DNA of 64,000 nt from Clostridia bacterium (lineage in GTDB: Bacteria; Bacillota; Clostridia; Christensenellales; CAG-314), in assembly GCA_028698585.1 (NCBI GenBank), contig JAQVWG010000002.1, positions 77,799 through 141,798 of the forward strand, given 5' to 3'. The position numbers and the translations under genes were made by a program. Within the stretch, counting starts at the first letter, position 1; each line of letters opens with the position of its first letter. The notes under the pieces are model-generated. The model made no database searches, had not been told where the DNA came from, and saw nothing but the letters and a program-made list of their open reading frames with translations. Positions 2,162-61,660 of this stretch are shown piece after piece.

Positions 2162-2167
2162 GTAATT

Positions 2168-15556: not shown

Positions 15557-15609
15557 TCTACCCACTTTACAGAGCAATACTATTATTCAATTAATCTATC
15601 ATTACAGTT

Positions 15610-15635: not shown

Positions 15636-15695
15636 AGTATATAGTTGCTGTTTAGTAGTTGATAATATTCTGTTGGTCGTATATTCACCGATTGT

Positions 15696-17013: not shown

Positions 17014-17271
17014 AGTAAGTCTCCTAATTTTTTATTTTGGTGCTTGTGCGTGGATAAACGGAATTAATGCCATAGATAAGCCATATTGTGTGGCCATTTA
17101 TGAGTGTTTATTGAGTGGATAATTGAATAATGGTATGCCACTTGATGTGTTAATAGTAACATATTGGCATAATTTGTCAACGCTGTTTTGTACAATAATC
17201 TTGACTACTTATGTTATATAATGTCGAACTATGTGATAAGCGAAATTGTCAGGTGTATAAACTAGTATAAA

Positions 17272-44646: not shown

Positions 44647-44886
44647 AGTAATTGCTCCAATTGTGTTGGTAATGAGTATATATTGTTGAGTGATATTGAA
44701 CTTACACCCTATATGAATGGTTGGCGCAAATAACGCTTGTTCACACCATTATTGACTGTTTTCTGCAATCTCTTGCTGTGTGATTGCTCCGCCGTTACAG
44801 ATAGCATGCTATTATAATCACAGACTGTTACAGATTGTTTTATGTGTTAATCTGTAACAATTACTTGACCGTATGCCTATTAAGGA

Positions 44887-46422
44887 TTATTCAAGTTGAC
44901 CTATTGCAGATGTTACTGCGTCTAGCAGTTGTCCACTCCTAATTAACTCTGCACACTTATGTATGTCTGGAGATATATATCTGTCGTTTTCCATGAATGA
45001 TACTACGCTTCTTACGAGTTGATAAGCCGGCTTAGTGCCTGCTCCCAGAGTGGCCTTGTCATTGCCCAAATCTATTGCCTGAGTAGCAGTTAATAACTCT
45101 ATTGCCAGCACATTAGTAACGTTATCTATAATTGTCTTCAGCTTACGTGCAGCAGTCATACCCATACTGACATGGTCTTCTTGGTTGGCGCTACTTGTTA
45201 TACTATCCACAACTGCTGGATGTGATAGTACTCTGTTCTCACCCACCAAGGAAGCAGCCACATACTGAGGTATCATCATGCCACTGTTAAGTCCGCCATT
45301 CTTGACTAGGAAGGGTGGAAGTCCCGATAGTTGACTGTTGACCAATCGCTCAATTCTTCTCTCACTGACATCTGCTAGTTCGCTCATAGCAATAGCGAGG
45401 AAGTCTAATGCCATAGCGAGTGGTTGTCCGTGAAAATTGCCTCCACTGATAGCCTCGTTAGTGTCTGCGAATATTATGGGGTTATCTGTAACTGCATTTA
45501 TCTCCTTGCTGACTATATTGTCAACATAATTAGTTGCGTCTTTACTGGGACCATGTATCTGTGGCACACACCTGATTGTATAGGCGTCCTGTACTCTTAA
45601 TTGTCCCTGTCTAGAAGTACGCTGACTGCCACTCAGTAACTTACGAATATTGTTAGCTGTGCTTATCTGTCCGTCTTGATGTCTAAGTAGATGTAGTCTG
45701 GGGTCAAAAGCGTCTATAACTGCATTCACTGCTTCCATTGTGAGTGCAGACACTATATCTGCTACCTTGTTGAGATTAAGAGCGTCATACACGCACAGAG
45801 TGGCATATGAGTTCATTGCTTGCGTTCCGTTGATGAGTGCAAGTCCTTCTTTAGATGTCAACTCAATGGGGGTGAGATTGGCTCTTTCAAGTGCTTCGTA
45901 AGATTCCATAAGTTGACCATTATAGTATGCTTGGCCTAATCCTAACAGAGTCAGTGTCATATGAGCAAGTGGTACGAGGTCGCCAGATGCCCCCAGAGAG
46001 CCTTTAGACGGCACGTATGGAACTACCTGACTGTTGAGAAGTGCCAGTAGAGAGTCAATTGTCGGTTGACTGATACCTGAGTTACCAACAGCTAATGCAT
46101 TAATCCGTAGTAACATCATAGCCCGAACATATTCCTCCGTTATAGGTTCACCCACTCCACATGCGTGTGATACGATAAGGTTAGCCTGTAACTGTTTAGA
46201 ATCCTCTTTACTGATTGAAACGTCAGCGAACTTGCCGAATCCGGTAGTGATACCATATATAACCCGTGCCTCATTGACACAATCCTCTACCAGTTGGCGA
46301 GAAACGGCCATACGCTTATACGACTGCTGGCTTATGCATACAGGTCTATGGTGTCGTGCTACGTCTACTACGTCTGCTATTGTCAAGTCTTGACCACTAA
46401 TAATCAGTTTATCTGTTTTCAA
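44887..46422 (-). CDS. hutH: Histidine ammonia-lyase
   Basis: MIO-forming GSLGASGDL motif. GGAGAGG RBS 8 nt before the TTG at 46422; the tracked GTG start at 46467 lacks an RBS and adds 15 atypical residues. Confidence 0.93.
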   Translation of the reverse strand: MKTDKLIISGQDLTIADVVDVARHHRPVCISQQSYKRMAVSRQLVEDCVNEARVIYGITTGFGKFADVSISKEDSKQLQANLIVSHACGVGEPITEEYVRAMMLLRINALAVGNSGISQPTIDSLLALLNSQVVPYVPSKGSLGASGDLVPLAHMTLTLLGLGQAYYNGQLMESYEALERANLTPIELTSKEGLALINGTQAMNSYATLCVYDALNLNKVADIVSALTMEAVNAVIDAFDPRLHLLRHQDGQISTANNIRKLLSGSQRTSRQGQLRVQDAYTIRCVPQIHGPSKDATNYVDNIVSKEINAVTDNPIIFADTNEAISGGNFHGQPLAMALDFLAIAMSELADVSERRIERLVNSQLSGLPPFLVKNGGLNSGMMIPQYVAASLVGENRVLSHPAVVDSITSSANQEDHVSMGMTAARKLKTIIDNVTNVLAIELLTATQAIDLGNDKATLGAGTKPAYQLVRSVVSFMENDRYISPDIHKCAELIRSGQLLDAVTSAIGQLE

Positions 46423-46725
46423 TCTAACTACCTCTCCGTTAATAATGCACCTATCATTATTACACACTTTTCGCTTTTTTTCAACACCTTATATGAACAA
46501 AAAAATGGTTATTTTTTTACATTATGTATAACTACTGGCAGTTAATAATGTCCAAAACCAGTCTGTTATAGGATATTATAATATTCTGATATCGCCCATT
46601 TATTGGCAAGCTCGAGTGTTATATGCATCTAGTATTGAGTCGGTCTTATCAAGTGATTTACTTGATATAACACGTAACTTATGTTATACTTATCTCAGCA
46701 AGAACTAACTAAGGAAGTGTTCATA

Positions 46726-48606
46726 TTGAAAAGAAGAATTGTTACTGCAATAGTGTTGGTCATCATTATGTTGATATCGTGTGCAATAGTTGGCTGTGAA
46801 AACACAAGAACAGACAAAGGGACAGGAACAGGTTCTGGAACAGGTTCAGGTTCAGGGACTATTCCACCCGTTACACATAAGGATAATGACAACGACGGTA
46901 TATGCGATGATTGCAATGCAAGCGTCATCATTAACTACGACATATACGGTATTAATGATTTACACGGCAAGTTCGTCGATACAGAATCTCAAATAGGTCT
47001 GGACGAATTAACTACATATATTAAGAACGCTCGCTCAACACAGGACAATGTTATACTATTATCAATGGGAGATATGTGGCAAGGAGATGCAGAGTCCACG
47101 TTGACGCACGGATTAATTATGACGGACTGGATGAATGCCATTGATTTTGACTGTATGACTCTAGGCAACCACGAGTACGACTGGGGCGAGACTTATATAC
47201 AGAATAATGCTGATGTGGCTGAGTTTCCATATCTTGCTATCAATATATATTCTAGCATAACTAACGAATTGGTAAATTATTGCCAACCGTCAATTATGAT
47301 TGAGAGGGGTGGTATCAAGATAGGCGTTATTGGTGTCATGGGGGATTGTTATTCTTCGATATCGTCTAATCAGGTAGAGGATGTGTATTTCGTTGTGGAC
47401 ACGTACGACGCCACACCATTAACTGATCTTGTCAAAGCCGAATCAGTATCTCTGCGTTCTCAAGGTGCGGACCTAATAATCTACTGTGTGCACGACGGAT
47501 ATAACGCATATGATACAGAGTTGTCAAGTGGCGGATATGTGGACTTAGTATTCGAAGGTCACACTCACACTAGTTATGTTAAGAAAGACACATATGGTAT
47601 ATATCACCTTCAAGGCGGTGGAGATAATGATGGCATAACACATGTCGACTTGAATTATAACTATGTAACCGACACATATAAGGTGGTTAGTGCCAACACA
47701 ATACCTACCAGCACGTATGCATCACTCGCCGATGACCCTATTATCGAGCAATTACTCGATAAATATGAAGATATTGTCGGCACGGTGCGTGATACAATAG
47801 GAGTCAACGATGTTACACGTGATGGGGACGAACTGCGCAGTTTAATTGCTCAACTGTACTATGAGAAGGGCATTGCCAAGTGGTCAAGTAGTTATGATAT
47901 CGTGCTAGGGGGCGGATACTTGTCTGTGCGTGCACCGTACAACCTGTATGCAGGCGACGTTACATATGCAGACCTATTGTCGATATTCCCATTTAATAAC
48001 GACTTGGTTCTGTGTTCAGTCAAGGGTGAGGATTTGAGTGATAAGTTTTTCTTTTCAACCAACTCCAACTACTATATACACTATGGAACGTATGGTACTC
48101 AAGTTAAGAACAACATAGTCGATGACCAAACCTATTATGTAGTCGTAGACACGTATACATCAACCTATGCGCCCAATAAATTGACCGAGGTGGCTAGATA
48201 TCAAGACGGCATATATGCGAGAGATTTACTTGCAGAGTACATTCAAAACGGTGGATTTACCGACCGTATTATCGGTGGCGACTATGATTTAACAGACATA
48301 CCCACGCTTATTGAGATAGGTGAGGCTCTAGATAGTAATCAATCCTCACAGGACGTGTACTATGTGAGTGGCACGATTACCAGTATTGAGAACACCACAA
48401 CTGGCATAATGACTATAGTTGATTCTAATGGCAACTCATTATATATCTATCGCCTCAATAGTGGCGCAACTAAATACGGTGATTTAGATATCAAGCCCAT
48501 TGTAGGAGACACTGTGGTATTATCTGGCAGAATGTATAAATATGCTAATAGTAGCAGTACCATTATTGAGTTGAAGGATGCTCAGTTAGTAGAATTAGTT
48601 GAATAA
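46726..48606 (+). CDS. Lipoprotein: metallophosphoesterase/5'-nucleotidase with a C-terminal OB-fold-like module
   Basis: AAGGAAG RBS 8 nt before the TTG at 46726; the ATG at 46681 has no RBS. Lipobox AIVG|C followed by a GTGTGSGTGSGSG linker. Metallophosphatase motifs GINDLHGKF, GDMWQG, GNHEYDWG and a 5'-nucleotidase C-terminal region. Tail: VYYVSGTITSIENTTTGIMTIVDSNG..GDTVVLSGRMYKY. Confidence 0.85.
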   Translation: MKRRIVTAIVLVIIMLISCAIVGCENTRTDKGTGTGSGTGSGSGTIPPVTHKDNDNDGICDDCNASVIINYDIYGINDLHGKFVDTESQIGLDELTTYIKNARSTQDNVILLSMGDMWQGDAESTLTHGLIMTDWMNAIDFDCMTLGNHEYDWGETYIQNNADVAEFPYLAINIYSSITNELVNYCQPSIMIERGGIKIGVIGVMGDCYSSISSNQVEDVYFVVDTYDATPLTDLVKAESVSLRSQGADLIIYCVHDGYNAYDTELSSGGYVDLVFEGHTHTSYVKKDTYGIYHLQGGGDNDGITHVDLNYNYVTDTYKVVSANTIPTSTYASLADDPIIEQLLDKYEDIVGTVRDTIGVNDVTRDGDELRSLIAQLYYEKGIAKWSSSYDIVLGGGYLSVRAPYNLYAGDVTYADLLSIFPFNNDLVLCSVKGEDLSDKFFFSTNSNYYIHYGTYGTQVKNNIVDDQTYYVVVDTYTSTYAPNKLTEVARYQDGIYARDLLAEYIQNGGFTDRIIGGDYDLTDIPTLIEIGEALDSNQSSQDVYYVSGTITSIENTTTGIMTIVDSNGNSLYIYRLNSGATKYGDLDIKPIVGDTVVLSGRMYKYANSSSTIIELKDAQLVELVE

Positions 48607-48775
48607 TAATTAATAATACTTGTGGCTCTAACCTAACTTAATTAACGATGCTGCTGAACACATACTGTGTATAAAAAAATGAGTTAAAAGTATAGGTATT
48701 AGATTGCATGATGTTACGAAATATGTTATACTGTGTAATGGCTAAGAAGGGTGTACGTATTGGGGGCGAAATGTA

Positions 48776-49531
48776 ATGATACTTGATTTGCAAAAAGCGA
48801 GCATGTGGAAACGAATATCTGCTTCACTTTTTGACTTTATAATCGTTACCATACTGATAGTTGGATTTGCTGCGCTGTTGTCCTGGATAGTTGATTATGA
48901 CGCTTATAACAGGAAAGTGCAGACAGCGTATGATGAGTATGGGGAGGCTTACGGCGTAGATTTACACGCTGATGAGAATACCCTTACCGAACAAGAGAAG
49001 ACCAACTACTATGCCGCCCTTGAGGCGCTCAATCAAGATACACAAGCGCTTCAAGATTATACCATGCTGTTTTATTTGACATTAATTGTTACTAATATAA
49101 GTATATTATTGGGTTTTATCATTATGGAGTTCGTACTGCCCATCATTTTCAAGAACGGGCAGACACTGGGCAAAAAAATCTTCGGTATATGCGTTATGCG
49201 AGTTGACGGAGTAAAAATAACCAATATTCAGTTGTTCATGCGCTCCATACTGGGTAAATGCACTGTAGAGACATTAATCCCTGTCCTGTTGCTGATTATG
49301 ATTATGTTCGGCATGTTAGGACTAACGGGGACTGTCGTGCTGATTTTATTTGCATTACTGCAGATAATACTGGTGGCAACAACCAACGCTCGCACGCCCA
49401 TACACGACTTATTAGCAGGCACAGTTACTGTAGATAAGGCAAGTCAGTTGATATTCGATTCAACTGATGAATTAATTGAATTCAAGAAAAGAATGGCAGC
49501 TGAGCAAGCTGAGAGAGCGCAATACAAGTAA
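48776..49531 (+). CDS. RDD family membrane protein
   Basis: KRISASLFDFIIV N-terminal pattern with 3-4 TM helices, and GKKIFGICVMRVDG. Confidence 0.65.
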   Translation: MILDLQKASMWKRISASLFDFIIVTILIVGFAALLSWIVDYDAYNRKVQTAYDEYGEAYGVDLHADENTLTEQEKTNYYAALEALNQDTQALQDYTMLFYLTLIVTNISILLGFIIMEFVLPIIFKNGQTLGKKIFGICVMRVDGVKITNIQLFMRSILGKCTVETLIPVLLLIMIMFGMLGLTGTVVLILFALLQIILVATTNARTPIHDLLAGTVTVDKASQLIFDSTDELIEFKKRMAAEQAERAQYK

Positions 49532-49604
49532 TACACTGTTCAATCGTCAAGTATACACATCACGCAAGATAATTACTGAACTACTACTTATATAGAGGGA
49601 GCAT

Positions 49605-50843
49605 ATGAAAGTTGAATTGCAAAACGTTACTAGGATTTTTCCTAGCAGGAACAAGAGAGAAAAGAATGATGTAGTTGCCGTCAATAACTTTACATTCGAG
49701 ATACCCGATGGCAAACTGATTGGATTGTTAGGACCAAGTGGTTGTGGTAAGAGCACGACCCTATATATGATATCTGGTCTGCAAAGGCCTACATCAGGAC
49801 GTATTTTTTTCGGTGAGGACGATGTTACGGATTTGGCTCCTGAGAATAGGGGAGTAGGACTGGTATTCCAGAACTATGCTCTATATCCTCATATGACGGT
49901 CAAACAGAATATTCTTTTCCCACTGCAGAACCTCAAGGGTGAAGACAAGATGACCAAGGAGGATATGTTGGAGAGAGCTTACAACGTGGCTCGTTTGGTA
50001 CAGATTGATGAGTTAATGGAGCGTAAGCCCAGTGAGTTGTCTGGTGGACAACAACAGAGAGTTGCTATTGCTCGTGCACTTGTCAAGATGCCAAGAGTAT
50101 TACTCCTAGATGAACCGCTATCCAACCTAGACGCTCGTCTACGTTTGCAGACTCGTGAGGAGATAAGGAGAATACAGAGAGAGACGCAGATAACTACCGT
50201 TTTCGTAACGCACGATCAAGAGGAGGCTATGAGCATATCTGACACTATCGTAGTTATGAAACTAGGCGTTATTCAACAGATTGGTAAACCACAGGATGTC
50301 TATGATAACCCCACCAACCTATTCGTCGCCAAGTTCTTAGGTACCCCTCCTATCAATATTTTTAAGGGCTATGTGCGTAACGAAATGCTGTATATAGGTG
50401 ACGACCCCATTATGTCAGTGCCCGGCATTCAACTACCGGAGAAGAAGGTCAAGGTTGAGCAACAAGACAATCAGGAGAATATATCCACAGAGCATAATAC
50501 TGCTAACGGACAAGCAGTAGACAGCCAGACAGCTGAGTATAAGACAGTCGAGGACGGCGTGAAAGGACACCCAGTATATATAGGCATTCGTCCTGAGGGA
50601 TTCATAGTCGACGAACAGAATGGACCACTACACTGTCACTTGAACAATGTCGAGGTGATGGGGCGTGATATGACAGTAGTATCTTCTAACTCTGATAGTG
50701 AGTCGGGCATTATAAGATCCATTATCAACAGCGATTCCGGACTGGATAGACAGGCAGAGACGGTGAGATACTCCCTAAAGCCACATAAGGTGTTCATATT
50801 CGACCTAGACACAGAAGAAAGAATCCTTTTCGAGGTGAAATAA
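49605..50843 (+). CDS. ABC transporter ATP-binding protein, MsmX/UgpC/MalK type, with a ~45-aa insertion in the C-terminal regulatory domain
   Basis: Walker A GPSGCGKST, Q-loop FQNYALYPHMTV, signature LSGGQQQRVA, Walker B LLLDEPLSNLD. 412 aa. Confidence 0.9.
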   Translation: MKVELQNVTRIFPSRNKREKNDVVAVNNFTFEIPDGKLIGLLGPSGCGKSTTLYMISGLQRPTSGRIFFGEDDVTDLAPENRGVGLVFQNYALYPHMTVKQNILFPLQNLKGEDKMTKEDMLERAYNVARLVQIDELMERKPSELSGGQQQRVAIARALVKMPRVLLLDEPLSNLDARLRLQTREEIRRIQRETQITTVFVTHDQEEAMSISDTIVVMKLGVIQQIGKPQDVYDNPTNLFVAKFLGTPPINIFKGYVRNEMLYIGDDPIMSVPGIQLPEKKVKVEQQDNQENISTEHNTANGQAVDSQTAEYKTVEDGVKGHPVYIGIRPEGFIVDEQNGPLHCHLNNVEVMGRDMTVVSSNSDSESGIIRSIINSDSGLDRQAETVRYSLKPHKVFIFDLDTEERILFEVK

Positions 50844-51787
50844 TGTACGATACCAAAAGACAATGGAAAGCATGGTTATATTTATTGCCGATGCTAGTTC
50901 TGCTGGCAGTCTTTACCATATGGCCCATAATCAATACGGTAAGAATGTCTATGCTAGAGAAGTATCAAGCGCTCGCGGCGGCAGGTGGCAAGACTTTTGA
51001 AGTAAGTTTCTATAACTTCAAGGATGTTCTCTCGTACAACAAGTTTCTCACATGCCTGAAGAACACAATGATTCTGTGCGTTGTCACAGTGCCCGTTTCC
51101 TCGATTTTAGCACTGCTTATTGCAGTTTTTCTCAACTCTATAAGACCACTCAAGAGAGTGCTCCAAACTATCTTTTTCCTTCCTTATGTTACCAACTCCA
51201 TTGCAATAGGTATGGTGTTCGCAGCTATGTTCAACATCGTTGGCAGTTTTCACGGTACACCTAACCAGATAATCGAGACAGCAGGCATAATCAATAATAT
51301 GCTGGGTGTGTTCGGCATTGAGCCTATTAACTGGATTAACCCGGGCTCAACTTATGGTGCTAACATTACCGTACTGGTAATATATATCGTATGGAATGCT
51401 CTGCCTTTCAAGATTCTTATACTACTAGGTGGACTTCAAGGTATCAATAAACAATACTATGATGCAGCCAAGGTAGATGGCACTCCCCGTAAACGCATTT
51501 TTACACGCATTACTGTCCCACTGTTATCACCAATGATTGCCTATGTCGTAATTACGGGATTTATCGGCGGATTCAAGGAGTACACTAGCATTGTCGGTAT
51601 ATTTGGCGAAGACATGGGGCCTGCTGGCGCATCCAAGAGACTCAATACCATGGTTGGATTCATATATGACGCCCTCGAGAATGGTAGACAAGGTAGGGCA
51701 AGCGCAGCTGCACTTATACTTTTTGCGATAATACTGGTTGTAACACTCATCAACCTGTACGTCAGCAAGAAGAGAGTGCACTACTAA
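50843..51787 (+). CDS. Carbohydrate-type (CUT1) ABC transporter permease
   Basis: Six TM helices. EAA-loop AAKVDGTPRKRIFTRITVPLLSP. ATG overlaps the ATPase stop. Confidence 0.88.
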   Translation: MYDTKRQWKAWLYLLPMLVLLAVFTIWPIINTVRMSMLEKYQALAAAGGKTFEVSFYNFKDVLSYNKFLTCLKNTMILCVVTVPVSSILALLIAVFLNSIRPLKRVLQTIFFLPYVTNSIAIGMVFAAMFNIVGSFHGTPNQIIETAGIINNMLGVFGIEPINWINPGSTYGANITVLVIYIVWNALPFKILILLGGLQGINKQYYDAAKVDGTPRKRIFTRITVPLLSPMIAYVVITGFIGGFKEYTSIVGIFGEDMGPAGASKRLNTMVGFIYDALENGRQGRASAAALILFAIILVVTLINLYVSKKRVHY

Positions 51788-51798
51788 GAGGTGTTAAT

Positions 51799-52689
51799 AT
51801 GAAAATAGATACAATGCATGAATTGAATGTTCAAGATGTCTCCAATAAGCAAAAAGTTGGCAAGATTATCGTAACAACACTCCTATATGTATTTCTGATT
51901 TTTATGGCGATAATTGTGCTGTTCCCATTCTACTGGATGATTAACTCGTCACTCAAGAGTATCGGCGAGTATTTACTGCCCGTACCCACATTCTGGCCAC
52001 ATAGGATACTGTTTGTTAACTATATAGATGCGTTCAAGACAGCCAACCTAGGCAGGCTGTTCCTCAATACAGTCTATGTTGGTGTTGTGTCCACACTGTT
52101 GTCACTGGTAATCACCATACTTTCTGCTTTTGCTTTCGCACGTTTAGAGTTCAAGGGCAAGAACGTGCTGTTTGCCTGTTTACTGGCTACTATGATGATA
52201 CCAGGCGAACTATTTACCATTACCAACTATGGCACAGTCAATGATTTAGGGTGGATGAACACATATACAGTGTTGATTGTCCCCTTCCTTGTCAGCATAT
52301 TCTATATATATCTGTTAAGGCAGAACTTCAAACAAATACCTAACGAATTATATTTGGCTGCCAAGGTTGACGGAACAAGCGACCTCAAATATCTAATTAA
52401 AGTAATGATTCCTCTTGCTTTGCCCACACTAATATCGATAACTATATTGAAAATGATGGGTGCTTGGAACTCATATATATGGCCTCGTTTAGTAGCTAGA
52501 GATATAGATCACACATTAATTACAGTAGGACTACGTAACGCATTTACTATCGATCCTGCCATAGGCTATGTCAATTATCCACAGCAAATGGCAGCAGTTG
52601 TCATAGTATCTGCACCATTGTTCCTAGTGTTCATATTCTTGAGAAAATATATCATGAAAGGCGTTAGCCGTAGCGGTATTAAAGGATAG
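51799..52689 (+). CDS. Carbohydrate-type (CUT1) ABC transporter permease
   Basis: EAA-loop AAKVDGTSDLKYLIKVMIPLALP. GAGGTG RBS. Confidence 0.88.
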   Translation: MKIDTMHELNVQDVSNKQKVGKIIVTTLLYVFLIFMAIIVLFPFYWMINSSLKSIGEYLLPVPTFWPHRILFVNYIDAFKTANLGRLFLNTVYVGVVSTLLSLVITILSAFAFARLEFKGKNVLFACLLATMMIPGELFTITNYGTVNDLGWMNTYTVLIVPFLVSIFYIYLLRQNFKQIPNELYLAAKVDGTSDLKYLIKVMIPLALPTLISITILKMMGAWNSYIWPRLVARDIDHTLITVGLRNAFTIDPAIGYVNYPQQMAAVVIVSAPLFLVFIFLRKYIMKGVSRSGIKG

Positions 52690-52726
52690 AAATAAACCAA
52701 CCAAAAAAATATAAAGGAGACTAAAA

Positions 52727-54172
52727 ATGAAGAAATTCTTATCAACAATCCTAGCAGTACTTATGTTATTGACAACAGCAATTGGCTTTGCAGCATGTAC
52801 TCCAGGCCCCGGCCCAAACCCAGGTCCTTCTGCCGAGCCTAATTTTGATGTCCCTGCCGAAGGTTACGACGGTAGCGAAGTAACAATTAAGTTCTACCAC
52901 ACCATGGGTAGTAATTTGACTGATGTGTTGAATCGCTACATCCCACTATTTAACGAGTTATACCCCAACATTACTATCGTACACGAGCAAGTTGGTGGTT
53001 ATGATGACGTTAGGGATCAAATCAGCACAGAGATTACTGAGGGTACACAACCCAACATTGCATACTGTTACCCAGATCACGTTGCTATGTACAATCTAGC
53101 CGGCGTTGTTACTACACTAGACAACTTAATTGATAGTGAGATAGTTGTTACACGTGCAGATGACACCACAGAAGTGCTAGGTCTAACGGCAGCACAGAAG
53201 GCTGACTTTATCGAAGGTTACTACAATGAGGGTAAGCAATTTGGCGATAACCTAATGTATACAATGCCCTTCTCCAAGTCAACAGAAGTGTTGTACTACA
53301 ACAAGACCTTCTTCGATGCTAATGGATTAACAGTTCCAACTACATGGGATGAGATGGAAGCACTATGCGCAGCAATCAAGCTACTAGATCCTACTTCAAT
53401 TCCACTAGGATATGACAGTGAAGCAAACTGGTTCATCACAATGTGTGAGCAGTATGGTTCAGGCTACACTAGCGCAACAGGCGACCACTTCATTTTCGAC
53501 AATGATACCAACAAGGCATTCGTTAAAGAAATTAGAGAATGGTATCAAGCAGGCTATTTAACCACACAAGAGATTTACGGCGCATATACCTCCACATTGT
53601 TCGTTTCCACAGAGGGAACCAAGAGTTATATGTCAATCGGTTCATCTGCTGGTGCTACTCACCAACGCCCTGCACAAGATACAAATGGTAACTATCCATT
53701 CGAAGTAGGTATCGCTCCAATCCCACAATTGAATCCAGATGATCCTAAGGCTATTTCTCAGGGCCCAAGCGTATGTATATTCCAGAAGGAAAACCCACAA
53801 GAAGTTGTTGCATCTTGGCTATTCGTCAAGTTCTTGACAACCAGTGTAGAGTTCCAAGCTGAGTTCTCAATGGCATCAGGTTATGTTCCTGTACTTAAGT
53901 CAGTTGCTGACAATGCTATCTATAAGGCATTCGTCGATGCTGCTAACGGTGGTAGCCACATTTCTGCACTGAGTGCTAAAGTATGTCTAGAACAACAAGA
54001 GTCATACTATGTATCCCCTGCATTCAATGGTTCTTCCACTGCTCGTGACCAAGTAGGTCTATTACTCCAAACATGCTTGACCACAGTGCTATCCGGAGGC
54101 CAAACTGTTGACGATTTAATTGATAGTGCATTCCAAGACGCAGTTGACGAGTGCGAATATTCTGCAGGTTAA
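52727..54172 (+). CDS. Extracellular solute-binding lipoprotein (family 1)
   Basis: AAAGGAG RBS. Lipobox IGFAA|C with a PGPGPNPGP linker. Size and composition are typical of CUT1 binding proteins. Confidence 0.85.
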   Translation: MKKFLSTILAVLMLLTTAIGFAACTPGPGPNPGPSAEPNFDVPAEGYDGSEVTIKFYHTMGSNLTDVLNRYIPLFNELYPNITIVHEQVGGYDDVRDQISTEITEGTQPNIAYCYPDHVAMYNLAGVVTTLDNLIDSEIVVTRADDTTEVLGLTAAQKADFIEGYYNEGKQFGDNLMYTMPFSKSTEVLYYNKTFFDANGLTVPTTWDEMEALCAAIKLLDPTSIPLGYDSEANWFITMCEQYGSGYTSATGDHFIFDNDTNKAFVKEIREWYQAGYLTTQEIYGAYTSTLFVSTEGTKSYMSIGSSAGATHQRPAQDTNGNYPFEVGIAPIPQLNPDDPKAISQGPSVCIFQKENPQEVVASWLFVKFLTTSVEFQAEFSMASGYVPVLKSVADNAIYKAFVDAANGGSHISALSAKVCLEQQESYYVSPAFNGSSTARDQVGLLLQTCLTTVLSGGQTVDDLIDSAFQDAVDECEYSAG

Positions 54173-54203
54173 CAATGAATCGTCACTCTAATAGGTGATT
54201 ATT

Positions 54204-55547
54204 ATGAAGAAACTGACAAAACTAACAATAATACTGCTTGTAATATGTCTACTGGCAACTTGTGTTGCGGGTTGTGAGCATTACAAGCCCGGACCCGATC
54301 CTGATCCGGTTGAAGTAGACTATGCTGTAGCTGTGGCATTTGATCCAACATCAACTGCCACCGTTAAGCAAGCAGTAACTGTCAAGACCTACATTGATGG
54401 TGATACTACTCACTTCTATGTACCCACAAGCATTGCCGAGTCGGGGACACTAAAGGCAAGATATCTAGCCATCAATACTCCAGAGTGTTCTGGCAAGGTA
54501 GAGGAGTATGGCAAGATGGCAGCCAAGTTTACCAAGGAGAAATTATCCTCAGCAACCTCTATATATATAGAATCTGATGATACTAGTTGGAATCTGGACT
54601 CTACCGGATACAGACACTTGGTGTGGGTATGGTATAAGACTGCTGACTCTGATGTATTTAGGAATCTCAATATTGAGATACTGCAGAATGGTTTAGCAAG
54701 GGCGTCTTCATCTGCTAACAACCGTTATGGCACGACCTGTATGAGCGCCATAGCTCAATCCAAACTGTTCAAGTACAACTTATATTCAGGTTTACCAGAT
54801 CCTAACTTCTACTATGGTGCAGCACAAGAGTTGACTCTTAAGGAGTTACGCTGTCACGTTGAAGATTATGTGGATACTGCAGTAGCATTCGAGGGCGTGG
54901 TTACCCGTAATAGCGGGAGTAACGGCGTATATGTAGAGAGTTATGATGCAGACACGGATATGTACTACAGTATGTACATTTACTATGGTTTTGCTTTGAG
55001 CGGTGACGGTCTCAATATACTGTCCGTTGGCAATCTAGTGCGTATAGTAGGTACTGTGCAGTACTATGAGGCAGGCGGCACTTATCAGGTGTCCGGATTA
55101 CAGTATTCTCCCATGCGCCCAACTGATCCAGCCAATATTCAGAAACTGGGTGAGGGGTACAGTCCTGCATACGACCTTATCACAGCTAATCAACTGAAGT
55201 ACGGCACAGTAATCATTACAGACGAGAACGATATTGCCACCACGTACGACTACGGTGAGTTAGCTTTGAGTTCGTCCGTATCATTGGAGAACTTGTACGT
55301 AACAAGTGCATATACCACGGATAACGGGGAAAGTTCATCATACGGAGCTATTACACTTACATGTCGTGCAAGTGACGGCACTGATATTACTGTCCGCACT
55401 ACGGTTATGTATGATGAGTACGGTAATCGTGTATTGCAGTCTGCATACGAGTATAAGACAATCAATATCAAAGGATTTGTAGATTACTACAGTGGTAAAT
55501 ATCAAATCAAGGTCTTGGATGATGTAGACATAACAATTGTAGATTAA
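54204..55547 (+). CDS. Lipoprotein: staphylococcal-type thermonuclease (SNase) domain plus C-terminal OB-fold-like modules
   Basis: AGGTGA RBS, then the ATG at 54204. Lipobox CVAG|C. SNase pattern VKTYIDGDTTHFYV..LKARYLAINTPE....EEYGKMAAKFTKEKL......NIEILQNGLA. Then VAFEGVVTRNSGSNGVYVESYD..GNLVRIVGTVQYY. Confidence 0.8.
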   Translation: MKKLTKLTIILLVICLLATCVAGCEHYKPGPDPDPVEVDYAVAVAFDPTSTATVKQAVTVKTYIDGDTTHFYVPTSIAESGTLKARYLAINTPECSGKVEEYGKMAAKFTKEKLSSATSIYIESDDTSWNLDSTGYRHLVWVWYKTADSDVFRNLNIEILQNGLARASSSANNRYGTTCMSAIAQSKLFKYNLYSGLPDPNFYYGAAQELTLKELRCHVEDYVDTAVAFEGVVTRNSGSNGVYVESYDADTDMYYSMYIYYGFALSGDGLNILSVGNLVRIVGTVQYYEAGGTYQVSGLQYSPMRPTDPANIQKLGEGYSPAYDLITANQLKYGTVIITDENDIATTYDYGELALSSSVSLENLYVTSAYTTDNGESSSYGAITLTCRASDGTDITVRTTVMYDEYGNRVLQSAYEYKTINIKGFVDYYSGKYQIKVLDDVDITIVD

Positions 55548-55581
55548 AAAAACCTATAAAAATAAAAAAGGAGATCAAAAA

Positions 55582-58500
55582 ATGAAAAAATTCATTGCTA
55601 GCATAGTGTTGTTACTAGTATTAGTTATGGCACTAGGAGCATGTCAGCCACCTGAACCGGGCAGTACAGAACTGAACCCAGTTAAGAGGGCTTTAGAGGC
55701 TCTATACGCAGAAGAGTCCGAGATTACCCTAGTTGACTTCACAAGACCCACCAGTATCGAAGTCGAGGGCGTAATCTATACACTCGAATGGAATGTAGAG
55801 GTTACTGAGGGTCTCGCAAGTGATGTTAAGGTAATACTCAATGATGACGGTACCGTTACAATTGACGTAGGTACAGCACCAGCCAATTCAGATGGTATTG
55901 AATACACCTTAACTGCAACCATTAGCAACGAAGCCGGCATCACTAAAGATGTGGAGTTTGATTATATTATTCCGTATTCTAAGCTAGTGTTGGCTAGAAA
56001 CTATCTATATGAGATGTATAAGGATGCATCTGCCATTACAGGAACTGATTTCACAAGAGTTAGTAATGCATTAGGCGGAGGGCAGACTTTCCCTATTTCT
56101 TGGACAGTTGACGTTACTACCGGTAACGAAACCGATGTTACCGTTAGTTTAGCTGATAACGTTGTAACAATCGACGTTCCAGATAGAGCAGAATCCAATA
56201 TTGCTTATGATTTGGTTGCAACAATTACCGATGCTGAAACTCAAAATACATTGTCTTTAACTTATCACTACACAGTGCCTAAGTTTGAGATTAACACTTT
56301 CGCTGAGTATGCAGCAGCAGAAAAAGACGCCAATCTAGTTATTCAAGGTATCGTTACTGGTATCATCAGCAAGACTGACGGTCGTAGTAGTAACTGTCTA
56401 TATATACAAGACTTGAATGATGAAGGTGGTTACTACGTCTATGGTCTAACAGATGATCCCAAGACCACTGGTATTGAGATAGGCATGAAAGTTCTAGTTA
56501 CCGGTCAGAAAGACATCTACAGTGGCACGTACGAATTAGTTAAGGCTACAGTGGAAGTTCTAGACGATACAATAGCAACAGTTACACCAGTAGATTTTAC
56601 CACGCTATTTACTGATGCTACAGCATTGACAGATACCGCCTTGGTTGCTAAACAAGGAATGCTTGTTACAATTAATGATGTTTCCATAACCGGGCAGGAT
56701 ACAACTAATGGTTACTACAAATTCGAGTTGGATGGATTAGAGAGTTATATTAGAATATCCAGTTCTGTATGTCCTCTAACAAATGACGAGAAGAATACAT
56801 TCATTGCTGACCACACCTCACACCTAGGCTATATTGCAGACGCTACAGGTGTTATCTGTGTATACAACGGTGCATTCTACCTAACTCCTGTTACCGTCGG
56901 TGCATTTAATTATATCTCTCTACCTGAGAGATCAGACGCTGAAAAGGTAGCCTTCGAGAAAGAAAATCTAGCTATCGAATTGGCCATAACCGAGGACGGA
57001 GAGTTCACACTGGATACAGTTGGTCAGAGTTATAACACTGTAACTATCTCTTGGGCAAGTGATAACGCATGTGCTGTTATTGATGCCGGTAAGGTCACAT
57101 ATACACTGCCAGAGGATGCAGCAACAGTTACTATTACAGCAACAATAACCTGTGGTGAAGTAACAGATACCAAGACATTCTCAGTTGCAGTTGACGCAGC
57201 AAGCACATCAGTTTATGTTGCTAAACCAGTTGCTGAGCCAGCAGTTAATACTGCTTATAAACTAGCAATAGCACAGAACAACCTAGGTCTAACACTATAC
57301 TTTGCAGGTACAATCAGTGGCAACTACCTACAAACAACGGATAAGGCTGAGAAGGCTGTTGACGTATTCATGGAAGCAGTAGAGGGAGGATTCCAATTCT
57401 ACTTCATGGATGGCGAGACCAAGACTTATATTGACATCAATACAAGCGGTAAAGCAGCACTAGTTACTGCTACACCTAATGCAGTATTCACACTAGACGC
57501 AACACTAGGTATCTATAAGGCAACGGTCGGTTCATACGACTATTATCTAGGCACATACAATCAATACAACACAATCAGCGCTAGCAAGACATCTTATATT
57601 AACGCTGACAATATTGACGTATCTCAATTCCCAGCAAGACTATGTGAGATTGCCTATGGTATGAATGTTGCTGAGCCAGTTGCTGAGCCAGCAGTTAATA
57701 CTGCTTATAAACTAGCAATTGCACAGAACAACCTAGGTCTAACACTATACTTTGCAGGTACAATCAGTGGCAACTACCTACAAACAACGGATAAGGCTGA
57801 GAAGGCTGTTGACGTATTCATGGAAGCAGTAGAGGGAGGATTCCAATTCTACTTCATGGATGGCGAGACCAAGACTTATATTGACATCAATACAAGCGGT
57901 AAAGCAGCACTAGTTACTGCTACACCTAATGCAGTATTCACACTAGACGCAACACTAGGTATCTATAAGGCAACGGTCGGTTCATACGACTATTATCTAG
58001 GCACATACAATCAATACAACACAATCAGCGCTAGCAAGACATCTTATATTAACGCTGACAATATTGACGTATCTCAATTCCCAGCAAGACTGTCAACAAT
58101 TGAGATTGTCAGTGAGAATACCGACATGACCGACGCAGAAAAAGTAGCCGTCGTTAAGGAAGCATTAACACTATCCAATACTCAAATTACCGCTAACTTT
58201 ACCCTACCTGTAGCAGGCGAAGAGTTCGGTACAATAGCATGGGCTGAGAAGGTTGACTCCGATGCTATTGCTATTACTGATGGTAATGTCACAGTTACTC
58301 GTCAAGTTGCTGACACCGAAGTTGTTCTAGTTGCTACCATTACAGTTGGTGAAGCAACAGACACTAAAGAGTTTACTATTACTGTTAATGCTGCTCTAGC
58401 ACTAACACACGCTGGAACACAGGCTGACCCATACTCAATAGCTGACGCACTACTAGTTGCTGGTGAACTGGCAACAGGCGGATTCACAGCAGAACAAGTT

Positions 58501-59457
58501 TACATTACCGGCATTGTTACTAATGCTGGTAATGATAACGGTACATATGTATCCCGTTTCTACCTAGCTGATACTATAAGCGGTACGACACTACTTGTGT
58601 ATAGTTGTAATGATGCTAATGACGTAACTTCAATAGCAGTTAATGATACTGTCGTTATTTATGGCAAACTGTGTAACTATAACGGAACACTTGAGGTTAC
58701 AAGTTTCACAACTATGATTGAGGGTGTAAGCACTATAGTGTACCCAACATTCATTTCTAAGACTGCCGGCACCTCAACAATCACAGTTGACGAGGCTATT
58801 GTCAATGCTACAGTAACCAACCTAAGCGCAACAAGTGGTCTAAATGGTTCTACATTTACATTTAATGTTACACCTGCAACAGGTTATGTTATCAGCGCAG
58901 TTAAGGTTAACGGCGTTATTGTTACAGCAGATGCTGAGACTAACGTGTATACAGGTACAGTTAATGGAAATACAGTTATTGTAGTTGAGACTGCTGCTGA
59001 TGATGCACCAGTAGTGCTTCAAGCTGTCGCAACCAAACCAATCGGTCCAGATTCTCCATATCTAACTACAGATCCAGATACGACCAACTATGCTGCTAAC
59101 ATTTCTCTAGACGAGACATTGTTTACTGTTAATTATGTTAAGAACGCATGCTCTAACGCTTCAGGATTTGTTAGATTGAATCCAACCAACCTACAGATAT
59201 ATTCTAAGGCTGGTATGAACATCACAATCAATGCTCCAGAAGGTAAAGTTGCCAATATTACTCGTATAGTAATCAAGACTACCAGCACTAAGGACATCAC
59301 AGTCAACGGTACTGCATATGGTGGCACAGGCGTAGCACTAACCACTGATATTGACCAAGTAATTAACGCAACAACAGTTTCTATCGTGGCTAACGGTACT
59401 GCCCAAATTAAGATTACCGGAATCACTATTTACTATACCTTAGAGGATGCCGAGTAA
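55582..59457 (+). CDS. Giant (1291 aa) multi-domain surface lipoprotein with two OB-fold-like modules and Ig-like repeat modules
   Basis: AAAAGGAG RBS. Lipobox MALGA|C. OB-like segments LVIQGIVTGIISKTDGRSSNCLYIQD..GMKVLVTGQKDIYSGTYEL and VYITGIVTNAGNDNGTYVSRFYLAD..NDTVVIYGKLCNYNGTLEV. Several internally repeated ~100-150-aa modules. Confidence 0.8.
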   Translation: MKKFIASIVLLLVLVMALGACQPPEPGSTELNPVKRALEALYAEESEITLVDFTRPTSIEVEGVIYTLEWNVEVTEGLASDVKVILNDDGTVTIDVGTAPANSDGIEYTLTATISNEAGITKDVEFDYIIPYSKLVLARNYLYEMYKDASAITGTDFTRVSNALGGGQTFPISWTVDVTTGNETDVTVSLADNVVTIDVPDRAESNIAYDLVATITDAETQNTLSLTYHYTVPKFEINTFAEYAAAEKDANLVIQGIVTGIISKTDGRSSNCLYIQDLNDEGGYYVYGLTDDPKTTGIEIGMKVLVTGQKDIYSGTYELVKATVEVLDDTIATVTPVDFTTLFTDATALTDTALVAKQGMLVTINDVSITGQDTTNGYYKFELDGLESYIRISSSVCPLTNDEKNTFIADHTSHLGYIADATGVICVYNGAFYLTPVTVGAFNYISLPERSDAEKVAFEKENLAIELAITEDGEFTLDTVGQSYNTVTISWASDNACAVIDAGKVTYTLPEDAATVTITATITCGEVTDTKTFSVAVDAASTSVYVAKPVAEPAVNTAYKLAIAQNNLGLTLYFAGTISGNYLQTTDKAEKAVDVFMEAVEGGFQFYFMDGETKTYIDINTSGKAALVTATPNAVFTLDATLGIYKATVGSYDYYLGTYNQYNTISASKTSYINADNIDVSQFPARLCEIAYGMNVAEPVAEPAVNTAYKLAIAQNNLGLTLYFAGTISGNYLQTTDKAEKAVDVFMEAVEGGFQFYFMDGETKTYIDINTSGKAALVTATPNAVFTLDATLGIYKATVGSYDYYLGTYNQYNTISASKTSYINADNIDVSQFPARLSTIEIVSENTDMTDAEKVAVVKEALTLSNTQITANFTLPVAGEEFGTIAWAEKVDSDAIAITDGNVTVTRQVADTEVVLVATITVGEATDTKEFTITVNAALALTHAGTQADPYSIADALLVAGELATGGFTAEQVYITGIVTNAGNDNGTYVSRFYLADTISGTTLLVYSCNDANDVTSIAVNDTVVIYGKLCNYNGTLEVTSFTTMIEGVSTIVYPTFISKTAGTSTITVDEAIVNATVTNLSATSGLNGSTFTFNVTPATGYVISAVKVNGVIVTADAETNVYTGTVNGNTVIVVETAADDAPVVLQAVATKPIGPDSPYLTTDPDTTNYAANISLDETLFTVNYVKNACSNASGFVRLNPTNLQIYSKAGMNITINAPEGKVANITRIVIKTTSTKDITVNGTAYGGTGVALTTDIDQVINATTVSIVANGTAQIKITGITIYYTLEDAE
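57226..58091 (+). repeat. In-frame tandem duplication inside the giant lipoprotein gene: two 416-bp copies at a 450-bp (150-codon) period
   Basis: Copies at 57226-57641 and 57676-58091 differ at a single synonymous base (gcaatA vs gcaatT). Confidence 0.95.
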
Positions 59458-59498
59458 GTGAACTTATCAATAGATTAGGCTATCTATTCCATATCATA

Positions 59499-59526
59499 AT
59501 GGCTCCCGTATGGGAGCCATTTTTGG
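59499..59526 (+). terminator. Rho-independent terminator of the lipoprotein/ABC block
   Basis: ATGGCTCCC-GTAT-GGGAGCCAT followed by TTTTTGG. Confidence 0.85.
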
Positions 59527-59930
59527 TATCGTATTCAACAACTATTGTGCGGATATGCCAATATGAGCAGTAACATATAAGTGTCTGCAATACGTTGCAA
59601 TGTCAGATGTATGCGGTGGAGAGTCAAGAAGCCAATGCATAATTGCTTACCCAGTTAATGCAGAACGTTCAGTTGGTCTTGAGCACGTGGCATTAGAATA
59701 ACAGTTTATAAGCATTTATAGTGAACATCTCAGTTAATGCTATAGCAATAAGCATTGAACGATTGATACAATAAAGACATAATACGCTGTAATTACTGAT
59801 TGAATTAAACATGCACTGATGACTCTACACAGCATAGTAATTATAGTGAGGTGCTCATATGTATTGTCCTATCGTCATTCCTCAATGATTAGCATGACTG
59901 AAGGTTGTGGTCAACTAAGTACTGCATTAT

Positions 59931-61655: not shown

Positions 61656-61660
61656 TACTA

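Follow-up and report, generated by a model that had tools for sequence, protein, structure and literature searches.

What does a sugar-type ABC importer take up when its genes stand among those of a surface nuclease, a 5'-nucleotidase and OB-fold lipoproteins? This question is raised by a locus in a 64,000-nt stretch of DNA from a gut Clostridia bacterium (the window, that is, the whole stretch analysed), for which an earlier note proposed that capture, cleavage, dephosphorylation and uptake of extracellular DNA or RNA are coupled in one operon. We postulate from sequence comparison a nucleic-acid scavenging and uptake cassette that imports short phosphodiester-containing products, a reading to which we assign a probability of roughly 60%. 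As a tethered nuclease lies beside an importer whose substrate-binding protein (SBP) most resembles a dinucleotide binder, extracellular nucleic acid is probably eaten as short phosphorylated fragments.

Gene organization and conservation of the cassette

Our gene calls agree with the NCBI annotation (MDD3831403-MDD3831410, on a 292-kb contig named 'MAG: Clostridia bacterium'), including the first gene's previously given start at 46726. The locus comprises eight co-directional genes rather than the seven counted earlier; the missed one encodes an RDD-family membrane protein (48776-49531, + strand; Pfam PF06271, E 5e-13), the conserved first gene of the cassette. The intergenic gaps are short (-1 to 73 nt), as the earlier note had it, except that 169 nt separate the 5'-nucleotidase gene from the RDD gene. 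Within this gap, 5' of the RDD gene, lies a promoter-like site (48704-48732, + strand), TTGCAT-17-TATACT with a TG extension (extended -10), recognized by consensus match only. Transcription of the conserved unit probably starts here, and TGnTATAAT occurs 60-90 nt ahead of the RDD gene in many related loci. The unit is closed by an intrinsic terminator (59498-59521, + strand; 10-bp stem, 6 GC pairs, T tract), the strong terminator formerly placed at 59499. The 5'-nucleotidase gene probably has its own promoter, with a promoter-like site at 46662-46690 (+ strand). Translations bear out the four lipobox signal peptides described before: IVG|C in the 5'-nucleotidase, FAA|C in the SBP, VAG|C in the SNase protein and LGA|C in a 1291-aa protein.

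Among 80 related loci, 58 have enough upstream sequence for the gene order to be compared. The order RDD, ATPase, permease 1, permease 2, SBP and SNase is kept on one strand with gaps below 400 nt in 57 of them; in the remaining locus the six genes are all present, but one gap is larger. Such conservation supports a functional link of the nuclease to the CUT1-type importer. A variable OB-fold lipoprotein follows the six-gene core. Carriers belong to the Oscillospiraceae, Lachnospiraceae and Sphaerochaetaceae. Diverged versions are found in a cultured Mollicute, Alteracholeplasma palmae; there and in locus L084 the architecture is retained with an SBP identity of 38-39%. For another locus, L082, the cassette is borne out by gene calls made independently and by Pfam annotation. 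The RDD gene is present in 60 of the 80 loci and is first every time. Locus L084 has three RDD paralogues.

The default annotation would make this an ordinary oligosaccharide importer, with a nuclease co-transcribed by chance that serves matrix or NET/eDNA degradation or defence rather than nutrition; the mycoplasma literature does discuss SNase lipoproteins as virulence or NET-evasion factors. We regard this explanation as very improbable, given the strict synteny across families and phyla, the fusion of the SBP to an SNase domain or to OB modules in some relatives, and the weaker PDB matches of sugar binders described below. Furthermore, no glycoside hydrolase was found in the cassette or among its recurrent neighbours.

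Surface nuclease, nucleotidase and OB folds

The lipoprotein nuclease (54204-55547, + strand) has more than 6000 homologues. It comprises a Pfam SNase domain (about nt 54357-54788, + strand), a match anticipated by the earlier note along with Metallophos and 5_nucleotid_C in the nucleotidase, and two OB folds 3' of it (about 54879-55094 and 55206-55541, + strand). The catalytic residues D21, R35, T41, E43 and R87 are invariant. Since the Ca2+ ligand D40 is invariantly replaced by N, metal dependence and the level of activity are uncertain. The AlphaFold2 (AF2) model of the C-terminal half (pLDDT 88.6) consists of the two OB folds, and the best Foldseek matches of this tandem are tandem-OB DNA binders such as Teb1, Deinococcus/Thermus SSB, RPA70 and POT1. 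The C-terminal module of the 5'-nucleotidase (nt 48298-48543, + strand; AF2 pLDDT 86.5) is likewise an OB fold, matching the anticodon-binding domain of Lys-tRNA synthetase in Foldseek with a TM-score of 0.61-0.68. Its relatives in large databases carry PF01336, and some are named 'DNA/RNA endonuclease YhcR' (JGI) or 'predicted extracellular nuclease'.

The last gene (55582-59457, + strand) encodes the 1291-aa modular surface lipoprotein, with two aBig_2 domains (Pfam) and an N-terminal repeated module; an in-frame duplication of 450 nt lies at 57215-58091 (+ strand). With an HMM of the nucleotidase OB module, this protein gives one match at aa 959-1034 (E 1e-4) and a second, weak one at aa 247-313 (E 0.2), with OB-like segments at about 58456-58683 and 56320-56571 (the latter weak; both + strand). 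The segments of about 80 aa shared by the three lipoproteins, read from their pattern as OB folds, are thus recovered as such by AF2 and Foldseek in two proteins and by HMM in the third, and by Foldseek they are of nucleic-acid-binding rather than carbohydrate-binding type. The slot of the 1291-aa protein is the variable position of the cassette, occupied in 40-54 loci by a lipoprotein with one to nine OB modules. We propose from its OB folds that the protein captures nucleic acids.

The lipoprotein 5'-nucleotidase (46726-48606, + strand; Metallophos and 5_nucleotid_C by Pfam and NCBIfam) is an accessory, window-specific neighbour outside the conserved cassette. In 79 of the 80 related loci the neighbourhood lacks this gene, and the single orthologue sits on the opposite strand. 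Of the coupling suggested earlier, the link between nuclease and importer stands, but dephosphorylation as an obligatory step is not supported. The same observation bears on the original version of the scheme, in which degradation to nucleosides (or deoxyribose or ribose) is completed outside the cell and a CUT1 transporter imports the dephosphorylated, sugar-containing product. An OB-tagged nucleotidase directly upstream in the window is what this version would lead one to expect, CUT1 cargo is mostly sugars, and NCBI names both permeases sugar/carbohydrate permeases. However, the cassette is conserved without the nucleotidase, and SNase leaves its products with 3'-phosphates, on which a 5'-nucleotidase does not act. 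We consider this version unlikely, also in view of the SBP and the cytoplasmic enzymes discussed below.

B. subtilis YhcR is a wall-anchored endonuclease that unites OB, SNase and 5'-nucleotidase domains. The locus shares this repertoire (PF01336-type OB folds, SNase, Metallophos and 5_nucleotid_C), and the view that it is split over separate products holds. Whereas YhcR is a single sortase-anchored protein, the locus has separate lipid-anchored lipoproteins inside an importer operon.

The importer and its predicted cargo

The transporter consists of a UgpC/MalK-like ATPase (49605-50843, + strand; ABC_tran E 1e-36) with 63-72% identity across syntenic loci, a UgpA-like permease 1 (50843-51787, + strand), a UgpE-like permease 2 (51799-52689, + strand; BPD_transp_1 in both permeases) and the lipoprotein SBP (52727-54172, + strand; SBP_bac_1/8). 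Its earlier assignment to the CUT1 type is retained, but all parts are nearer to UgpC, UgpA, UgpE and UgpB than to MalK, F, G and E in NCBIfam. The best NCBIfam match of the ATPase is UgpC (345 bits); transporter scores lie far under the equivalog cut-offs, for example 55 against 411 bits for the SBP.

In a PDB search with the SBP family profile, 7C0F/7C0X (1e-22) and E. coli UgpB (1e-14) outrank the sugar binders (at most 49 bits), and a sugar-like binding protein was rejected on these grounds. The SBP thus groups with the UgpB, GPC-binding and UpG-binding proteins and not with oligosaccharide binders. Its score against the dinucleotide binder exceeds that against UgpB by 26 bits; identity to 7C0F is low, about 25-30% over 220-240 residues. 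In 7C0F, from Thermus thermophilus, the ligand is U3G (uridylyl-3'-5'-phosphoguanosine), and the protein belongs to the CUT1 phosphate-ligand clade (PMC12718374, section 9 and Table S5). The phosphate-holding Tyr/Ser/Ser/Tyr set is conserved in 73-74 of 74 SBP orthologues and in 55-61 of 67 members of the wider family. UgpB residues W192/W195 (Trp169/Trp172), the glycerol clamp, and G306 are replaced by A/F and Q in the SBP; the Thermus protein (7C0F/7C0X) shares both the phosphate Tyr/Ser set and A/F/Q, in a comparison limited to these positions. The C-terminal alignment is unstable, with UgpB R397 pairing with G444 in one alignment and with the invariant R440 in another. The Thermus structure was reportedly described by Chandravanshi et al. 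(FEBS J 2021). To our knowledge, this protein is the only known dinucleotide-binding protein, and we know of no linkage of it to a nuclease. It is periplasmic, whereas the window's SBP is a lipoprotein with a Pro/Gly-rich tether.

Placement of the SBP in the phosphate-ligand clade therefore narrows the cargo question towards phosphorylated fragments. On sequence grounds, the cargo is most likely short phosphorylated oligonucleotides rather than nucleosides, against which the phosphate-binding set speaks. A Ugp-like organophosphate importer would also fit this clade; it would take up glycerophosphodiesters, G3P or another phosphodiester for general phosphate scavenging, the nuclease merely freeing phosphate-rich material. 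Among curated families, E. coli UgpBAEC indeed scores highest for each of the four parts, its phosphate-binding residues are conserved in the cassette and common to UgpB and the GPC-binding protein, and the Thermus protein is said in its primary paper to bind GPC as well, at a second site. However, the clamp tryptophans and E89 of UgpB are missing in all SBP orthologues, no UgpQ/GDPD phosphodiesterase was found in the window or among recurrent neighbours, the SBP scores better against the dinucleotide binder, and its partners are OB folds and an SNase. We rate this explanation slightly below extracellular conversion to nucleosides.

Predicted route and related systems

Uptake of short phosphodiester-containing products would begin with the OB-fold lipoprotein and the two OB folds of the nuclease, which by their fold may retain extracellular DNA or RNA on the cell. 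The SNase domain, whose catalytic residues are present, would follow the chemistry of its family and degrade the polymer to mononucleotides, dinucleotides and oligonucleotides with 3'-phosphates. The SBP, by its similarity, would bind one of the short products that contain a phosphodiester, for example a dinucleotide, and the UgpAEC-like translocator is predicted at family level to import it, phosphate included. The conserved RDD membrane protein is a member of the unit, and the OB-tagged upstream 5'-nucleotidase may provide a window-specific branch of extracellular dephosphorylation.

In the cytoplasm, two NrnA-like DHH oligonucleotidases, placed by the conserved neighbourhood, could complete the degradation, yielding phosphate together with nucleotides or nucleosides. 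In the window, an NrnA-like DHH/DHHA1 phosphoesterase of oligonucleotidase/pAp phosphatase type (60681-61655, - strand; Pfam DHH and DHHA1) lies convergent with the cassette, and a second such paralogue follows at 61661-62596 (- strand; Pfam DHH and DHHA1). Both fall under the NCBIfam equivalog cut-off, the first with 237 bits against 350. Among the 51 loci with at least 6 kb of downstream sequence, the DHH pair occurs downstream in 33 and SurE, which passes the curated cut-off, in 29; in about one-third the pair was not found within 10 kb. The pair is convergent with the cassette and not co-transcribed in most Clostridia; A. palmae has two DHH genes co-directional with its SNase gene. In ten loci the upstream region contains a PHP pNp-phosphatase/RNase AM-like gene. 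By neighbourhood, SurE 5'/3'-nucleotidase or the PHP enzyme may thus join cytoplasmic processing in many relatives. For imported nucleosides, conserved oligonucleotidases and nucleotidases in the cytoplasm would be pointless.

The BmpA/PnrA-RnsBACD importers are ABC systems that likewise have a lipoprotein SBP and salvage what is left of degraded nucleic acids, but they belong to another SBP fold class and transporter family and carry nucleosides; Pfam and NCBIfam find no BmpA/PnrA-type component in the cassette.

The transporter type had been thought undescribed, a view that does not hold: a dinucleotide-binding CUT1 protein is solved (7C0F), and operons joining an SNase lipoprotein to a sugar-type ABC transporter have been described in mycoplasmas since 2007 (PMC3585158, PMC4045577, PMC5533444). 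The uptake scheme of the cassette has already been proposed there, the operons being polycistronic and thought to import nucleic-acid precursors; they comprise M. hyopneumoniae mhp379, M. agalactiae MAG_5030-5070, M. bovis MBOVPG45_0307-0311, M. hominis MHO_720-760 and M. gallisepticum MslA/MGA_0676, of which MslA binds ss/ds DNA (same sources). The evidence of sequence kinship with the cassette consists of the clear A. palmae homologue and of NCBIfam lipo_P68, which the SBP N-lobe matches weakly but consistently (30 of 33 members, best 4e-12). An RDD gene, OB-fold tails and a multi-OB capture lipoprotein, all present in the cassette, are not reported for the mycoplasma operons. Both contain an SNase lipoprotein and a second lipoprotein (in mycoplasmas, modelled as a solute-binding protein of the sugar type) along with two permeases and a single ATPase. 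The mycoplasma order is lipoprotein, SNase, ATPase and permeases, in contrast to RDD, ATPase, permeases, SBP, SNase and OB lipoprotein in the cassette; the adjacency of binding protein and SNase, in that order, is common to both.

A conserved nuclease-transporter cassette

The cluster at 46726-59457 consists of eight co-directional genes on the + strand, in agreement with the NCBI gene calls MDD3831403-MDD3831410 on a 292-kb contig named 'MAG: Clostridia bacterium'. The first gene encodes a lipoprotein 5'-nucleotidase (Pfam Metallophos and 5_nucleotid_C), and the second an RDD-family membrane protein (48776-49531; Pfam), which was overlooked in the earlier note, where seven genes of one direction were counted. 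These are followed by an ABC ATPase (49605-50843; ABC_tran, 1e-36), two permeases (BPD_transp_1, 7e-19 and 5e-17), a lipoprotein substrate-binding protein (SBP; SBP_bac_1/8, with SBP_bac_8 at 2e-35), a lipoprotein carrying a staphylococcal-nuclease domain (SNase; 54204-55547), and a 1291-aa lipoprotein with two aBig_2 domains. The four lipobox lipoproteins previously proposed can all be read directly in the translations, the SNase and 5'-nucleotidase domains assigned to two of them are confirmed by Pfam, and the closing terminator (59498-59521) is the strongest of the region. Intergenic gaps range from -1 to 73 nt, with the exception of 169 nt ahead of the RDD gene, which contain an extended -10 promoter-like site (48704-48732). 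No known RNA leader or riboswitch was matched in Rfam within 46400-49700 even at E ≤1, and a search for a conserved upstream regulatory motif among related loci returned nothing beyond generic extended -10 boxes. The left boundary is formed by divergent urocanase and histidine ammonia-lyase (hut) genes (42604-46467, - strand); these are unrelated to the cassette, as is a THF riboswitch at 2167-2278 (+, 67.9 bits).

Full-length relatives of the nuclease protein number more than 6000. A synteny scan with one genome per GTDB species yielded at least 547 relatives, and the best 80 of these at least 547 loci were compared; they belong to gut and rumen MAGs of Oscillospiraceae, Lachnospiraceae, Faecousia, Ruminococcus and Christensenellales, with Sphaerochaetaceae and MAGs labelled 'Mollicutes' and 'Bacilli' also among them. 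Where at least 5.7 kb of upstream sequence was available (n=58), the order RDD-ATPase-permease 1-permease 2-SBP-SNase was fixed on one strand with gaps below 400 nt in 57 loci, and the 58th holds all six genes with a single 890-nt gap. Across syntenic loci the transporter proteins are 61-84% identical and the nuclease 51-64%, while the lipoprotein encoded downstream is variable (27-53% identical, 115-2544 aa long) and bears a lipobox in 64 of 73 cases. In one related locus, L082, the cassette was confirmed by independent gene calls with Pfam labels. The proposed synteny with the transporter therefore holds for the nuclease (57/58) and fails for the 5'-nucleotidase, which has an orthologue in only 1 of the 80 loci, on the opposite strand; the remaining 'matches' to it reflect its OB module alone. 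The 5'-nucleotidase lies outside the conserved cassette.

In the conserved gene order, the RDD gene comes first. We know of no established function for RDD proteins, and their position here gives them a consistent genomic context. A diverged variant, L084, encodes three RDD genes (1884-5606), two SBPs, an SNase and an 830-aa OB protein. L055, L058, L067 and L070 (Sphaerochaetaceae), L052 ('Mollicutes') and L066 ('Bacilli') encode transporter proteins that share 65-80% identity with those of the window; the presence of the cassette in MAGs assigned to Spirochaetota and other classes suggests that it spread horizontally between anaerobes of the gut, or that the MAGs contain binning errors.

A related gene set is known from mycoplasmas, in which an SNase lipoprotein (mhp379, MAG_5040, MBOVPG45_0310, MHO_730 or MGA_0676) is encoded beside another lipoprotein, the ATPase and the two permeases of a 'sugar' ABC transporter (PMC3585158, PMC4045577, PMC5533444). 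The other lipoprotein is either P80, which has been modelled as an SBP of the sugar type, or MslA, for which these sources report demonstrated binding of ss and ds DNA; they also describe the unit as polycistronic, with import of nucleic-acid precursors proposed since 2007 (PMC3585158, PMC4045577, PMC5533444). The window (49605-55547) has in common with this operon an SNase lipoprotein beside an SBP-like lipoprotein, an ATPase and two permeases on one strand, and thus contains a module laid out like the SNase-ABC operon of Mollicutes. The same module occurs in the cultured Mollicute Alteracholeplasma palmae J233, whose SBP is 39% identical to that of the window and whose genes run ATPase-permease-permease-SBP-aBig_2 protein-SNase-DHH-DHH on a single strand. 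A DNA-degradation cluster of Izemoplasma, combining a thermonuclease with ABC transporters, has likewise been described. Because of these precedents, the earlier description of the transporter type as undescribed cannot be upheld. NCBIfam lipo_P68 was considered as a further bridge to the mycoplasma operon and rejected; the similarity is weak, and the match says little because P68 is mhp390, not the operon lipoprotein.

Our literature search for Clostridia and gut Firmicutes found no description of the cassette, only gene-cluster inferences for Mollicutes and Izemoplasma. Within the literature searched, four aspects appear to be undescribed: the Clostridial/Sphaerochaetal form with its RDD protein, OB-tailed nuclease and multi-OB lipoprotein; the breadth of the cassette across species; the placement of the SBP beside the dinucleotide binder; and the conserved NrnA pair.

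The binding protein and the phosphate-ligand branch of CUT1

A MalK/UgpC-type ATPase, two BPD_transp_1 permeases and an SBP_bac_1/8 protein encoded together make up a CUT1 (TC 3.A.1.1) importer. This class had been proposed before with a UgpC-like ATPase and MalF/MalG-like permeases; the class stands, and the permeases are closer to UgpA/UgpE than to MalF/MalG (NCBIfam). All four parts score highest against UgpC/A/E/B, above MalK/F/G/E. Identity with the glycerol-3-phosphate importer UgpBAEC itself was nonetheless rejected: the NCBIfam equivalog cut-offs are missed throughout (UgpB 54.7 vs 411, UgpA 69.6 vs 335, UgpE 99.7 vs 297, UgpC 344.6 vs 432 bits), and the ligand-binding residues are replaced. 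In UgpB (E. coli precursor numbering) W192 and W195 clamp the glycerol, alongside E89, whereas in all orthologues of the cassette SBP W192 is A/S/G/D, W195 is F/Y and E89 is P.

A profile built from 33 SBP orthologues and run against the PDB finds as its top match a Thermus thermophilus 'sugar ABC transporter' protein (7C0X/7C0F; 1e-22, 83 bits), ahead of E. coli UgpB (1e-14, 57 bits) and of sugar binders, all at 49 bits or less. Table S5 of PMC12718374 lists 7C0F as the binding protein of the dinucleotide uridylyl-3'-5'-phosphoguanosine (UpG, U3G). Section 9 of the same source groups UgpB, a mycobacterial GPC binder and the UpG binder into a single CUT1 branch for phosphate ligands, defined by a pair of Tyr and a pair of Ser that grip the phosphate; within this branch, as it is set out there, the two glycerol-clamping Trp belong to UgpB alone (PMC12718374). 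In our alignments the Tyr/Ser/Ser/Tyr set (window Y92, S185, S306/S307, Y386) is kept in 73-74 of 74 SBP orthologues and in 55-61 of 67 wider representatives, the A. palmae protein included, and the UgpB Trp clamp is never present in either set. At UgpB positions W192, W195 and G306 the family has A/F/Q, as does 7C0X; the equivalent of UgpB R397 is ambiguous because the C-terminal alignment is unstable. Judged by these residues, the SBP would fall within the phosphate-ligand clade of UgpB, GPC-binding and U3G-binding proteins, and by the profile search its closest solved relative is the dinucleotide binder 7C0F, with which it has pocket substitutions in common.

The SBP family comprises at least 456 clusters at 50% identity (E of 1e-30 or better). 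Some relatives carry an SNase domain or OB modules in the same chain, which may reflect real fusions or merged gene calls, and many others have long N-terminal extensions ahead of the SBP domain (P0220, P0263, P0228, P0321, P0293; P0197, P0203, P0217, P0223). The extensions were discarded as informative domains, as they are variable Cys-rich or LRR spacers. The ATPase of the window is 412 aa long, compared with 357-385 aa in relatives, and its C-terminal regulatory domain contains a low-complexity insert of polar character (~aa 275-330 of the product of 49605-50843).

Nuclease and OB-fold surface lipoproteins

The SNase domain of the window (PF00565) scores 31.6 bits against a Pfam cut-off of 21. 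All 29 aligned family members share D19, D21, T22, R35, T41, E43 and R87 of S. aureus nuclease A, and 29/29 have Asn in place of its Ca2+ ligand D40 (codon 91 of the ATG-start protein in the window). The chemistry of the SNase family yields 3'-phosphorylated mono-, di- and oligonucleotides. The enzyme is probably active, with a D40N metal site; its homologue in M. agalactiae is Mg2+-dependent.

The C-terminal 251 residues of the SNase protein are predicted to form two β-barrels (AlphaFold2, pLDDT 88.6, pTM 0.85). In a Foldseek search of the PDB, every top match is a nucleic-acid binder with tandem OB folds (Teb1 AB at 2e-7, Deinococcus and Thermus SSB, RPA70 AB, POT1 and HIN-200), and anticodon-binding domains of Asn/Asp/Lys-tRNA synthetases are matched as well. 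The 5'-nucleotidase ends in a module that occurs repeatedly: an HMM of this module detects 139-196 copies in lipoproteins downstream of the nuclease, in 40-54 of the 80 related loci, with up to nine copies in one protein. In the 1291-aa protein the HMM picks out aa 959-1034 (E 1e-4) and, with a weak match, aa 247-313. The AlphaFold2 model of the module (pLDDT 86.5) resembles the OB anticodon-binding domain of Lys-tRNA synthetase (Foldseek TM 0.61-0.68 over ~111 columns). By sequence, the OB segments of the window reach only E ~0.01-0.03 in Pfam; database relatives often carry a precomputed PF01336 match, and the JGI names among them include 'DNA/RNA endonuclease YhcR' and 'predicted extracellular nuclease'. 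The models support the earlier assignment of a ~80-aa pattern to an OB fold, and the modules are predicted to be nucleic-acid-binding OB folds of the PF01336 type. A carbohydrate-binding role for them is ruled out by the AlphaFold2/Foldseek matches and the PF01336/YhcR-type relatives.

YhcR combines OB, SNase and 5'-nucleotidase domains in a single sortase-anchored chain, whereas in the window these domains reside on separate lipoproteins that lack an LPXTG motif. The 1291-aa gene contains an in-frame 450-nt tandem duplication (57215-58091, 1.9 copies, 99% identical) that gives two near-identical 150-aa segments; it is either a recent event or an assembly artefact.

Downstream enzymes and a proposed import route

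Two NrnA-like DHH/DHHA1 genes (60681-62596) lie convergent to the cassette on its downstream side. Both domains are present in each product and NCBI calls both proteins NrnA, although their scores (237 and 231 bits) stay below the equivalog cut-off of 350 for NrnA, a bifunctional enzyme with oligoribonuclease and pAp phosphatase activity. Of the 51 loci whose downstream side extends for 6 kb or more, 33 contain the DHH/DHHA1 pair and 29 have SurE as well; the order is always SurE-DHH-DHH, on the minus strand, directly after the variable lipoprotein gene. SurE exceeds its curated cut-off. In L082 the arrangement persists despite the insertion of a restriction-modification system (12842-17508; HTH, two D12-class methyltransferases, RE_AlwI) between the cassette and SurE-DHH-DHH. 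A PHP protein is encoded upstream on the same strand in 10 loci, with top scores to 3',5'-nucleoside bisphosphate phosphatase and RNase AM.

Four stages of nucleic-acid capture, cleavage, import and processing are the best-supported reading of the cassette. Its domains, predicted folds, synteny, residue conservation and closest solved relative are shown by the analysis; the ligand, the direction of flow and co-regulation are inferred. Nucleic acid would be retained at the surface by lipoproteins with OB folds and by the OB tail of the nuclease itself, and the SNase domain would cut it into 3'-phosphorylated products. The UgpB-derived SBP would pick up a short phosphodiester-bearing product, the Ugp-like translocator would bring it in, and in the cytoplasm the breakdown would be completed by NrnA-like enzymes together with SurE or PHP phosphatases; the 5'-nucleotidase of the window may serve as an accessory extracellular branch. 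The earlier picture of nucleic-acid harvesting is borne out in its observations, corrected to eight genes, and only in part in its interpretation.

We tentatively postulate, with a probability of roughly 0.4 for the reading as a whole, that the cassette represents a large and so far unrecognised family of bacterial importers dedicated to oligonucleotides, comprising an OB-tethered nuclease, a UgpB-derived SBP, an NrnA-like pair and the conserved RDD protein as a new accessory subunit. As parts of this same joint estimate, 3'-phosphorylated di- or trinucleotides would enter intact, phosphate included, to be dismantled by the dedicated NrnA-like pair, and the cassette would stand as the first 'oligonucleotide utilisation locus' of the nuclease-to-nanoRNase kind beyond Mollicutes, occurring widely in Clostridia of gut and rumen and in Sphaerochaetaceae. 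The family size refers to the at least 456 SBP clusters (50% identity, E ≤1e-30) and at least 547 species-level genomes.

Gut and rumen contents are rich in extracellular DNA and RNA, the use of which by the dominant Clostridia there is, to our knowledge, largely unknown; the characterised salvage importers that we know of carry nucleosides, not phosphorylated fragments. If short oligonucleotides are imported with their phosphate, this would be a major phosphorus and nucleotide route in hundreds of gut species, currently mis-annotated as 'sugar ABC transporter'. It would also provide a tractable, widely distributed counterpart to the mycoplasma 'nucleotide transporter operon' hypothesis, with a homologue in cultured A. 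palmae, a physiological partner for paired NrnA paralogues and a first functional context for RDD proteins, and would suggest a natural entry of short oligonucleotides into Gram-positive cells. The question of the cargo can now be put to a sharp test on a single recombinant protein.

The slot that holds SurE in relatives is taken up in the window by a non-coding tandem array (59929-60613; period 126 nt, 5.4 copies, inner copies 96-100% identical), which lies between the terminator of the cassette and the NrnA-like genes; every copy bears a promoter-like TTGTCA-17-GATAGT. No SurE remnant was detected in this slot by tblastn, and the array has no Rfam or tRNA match and no copy in related loci; a structured RNA was rejected on folding z-scores of ~0 to -1.2 on both strands. 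A fused NT5C-like 5'-nucleotidase and guanylate-kinase-like protein recurs beside the SBP or cassette (L085, 7783-8916, with DeoC near the fusion gene) and is encoded upstream of RDD in four further loci (e.g. L057, 2653-3786).
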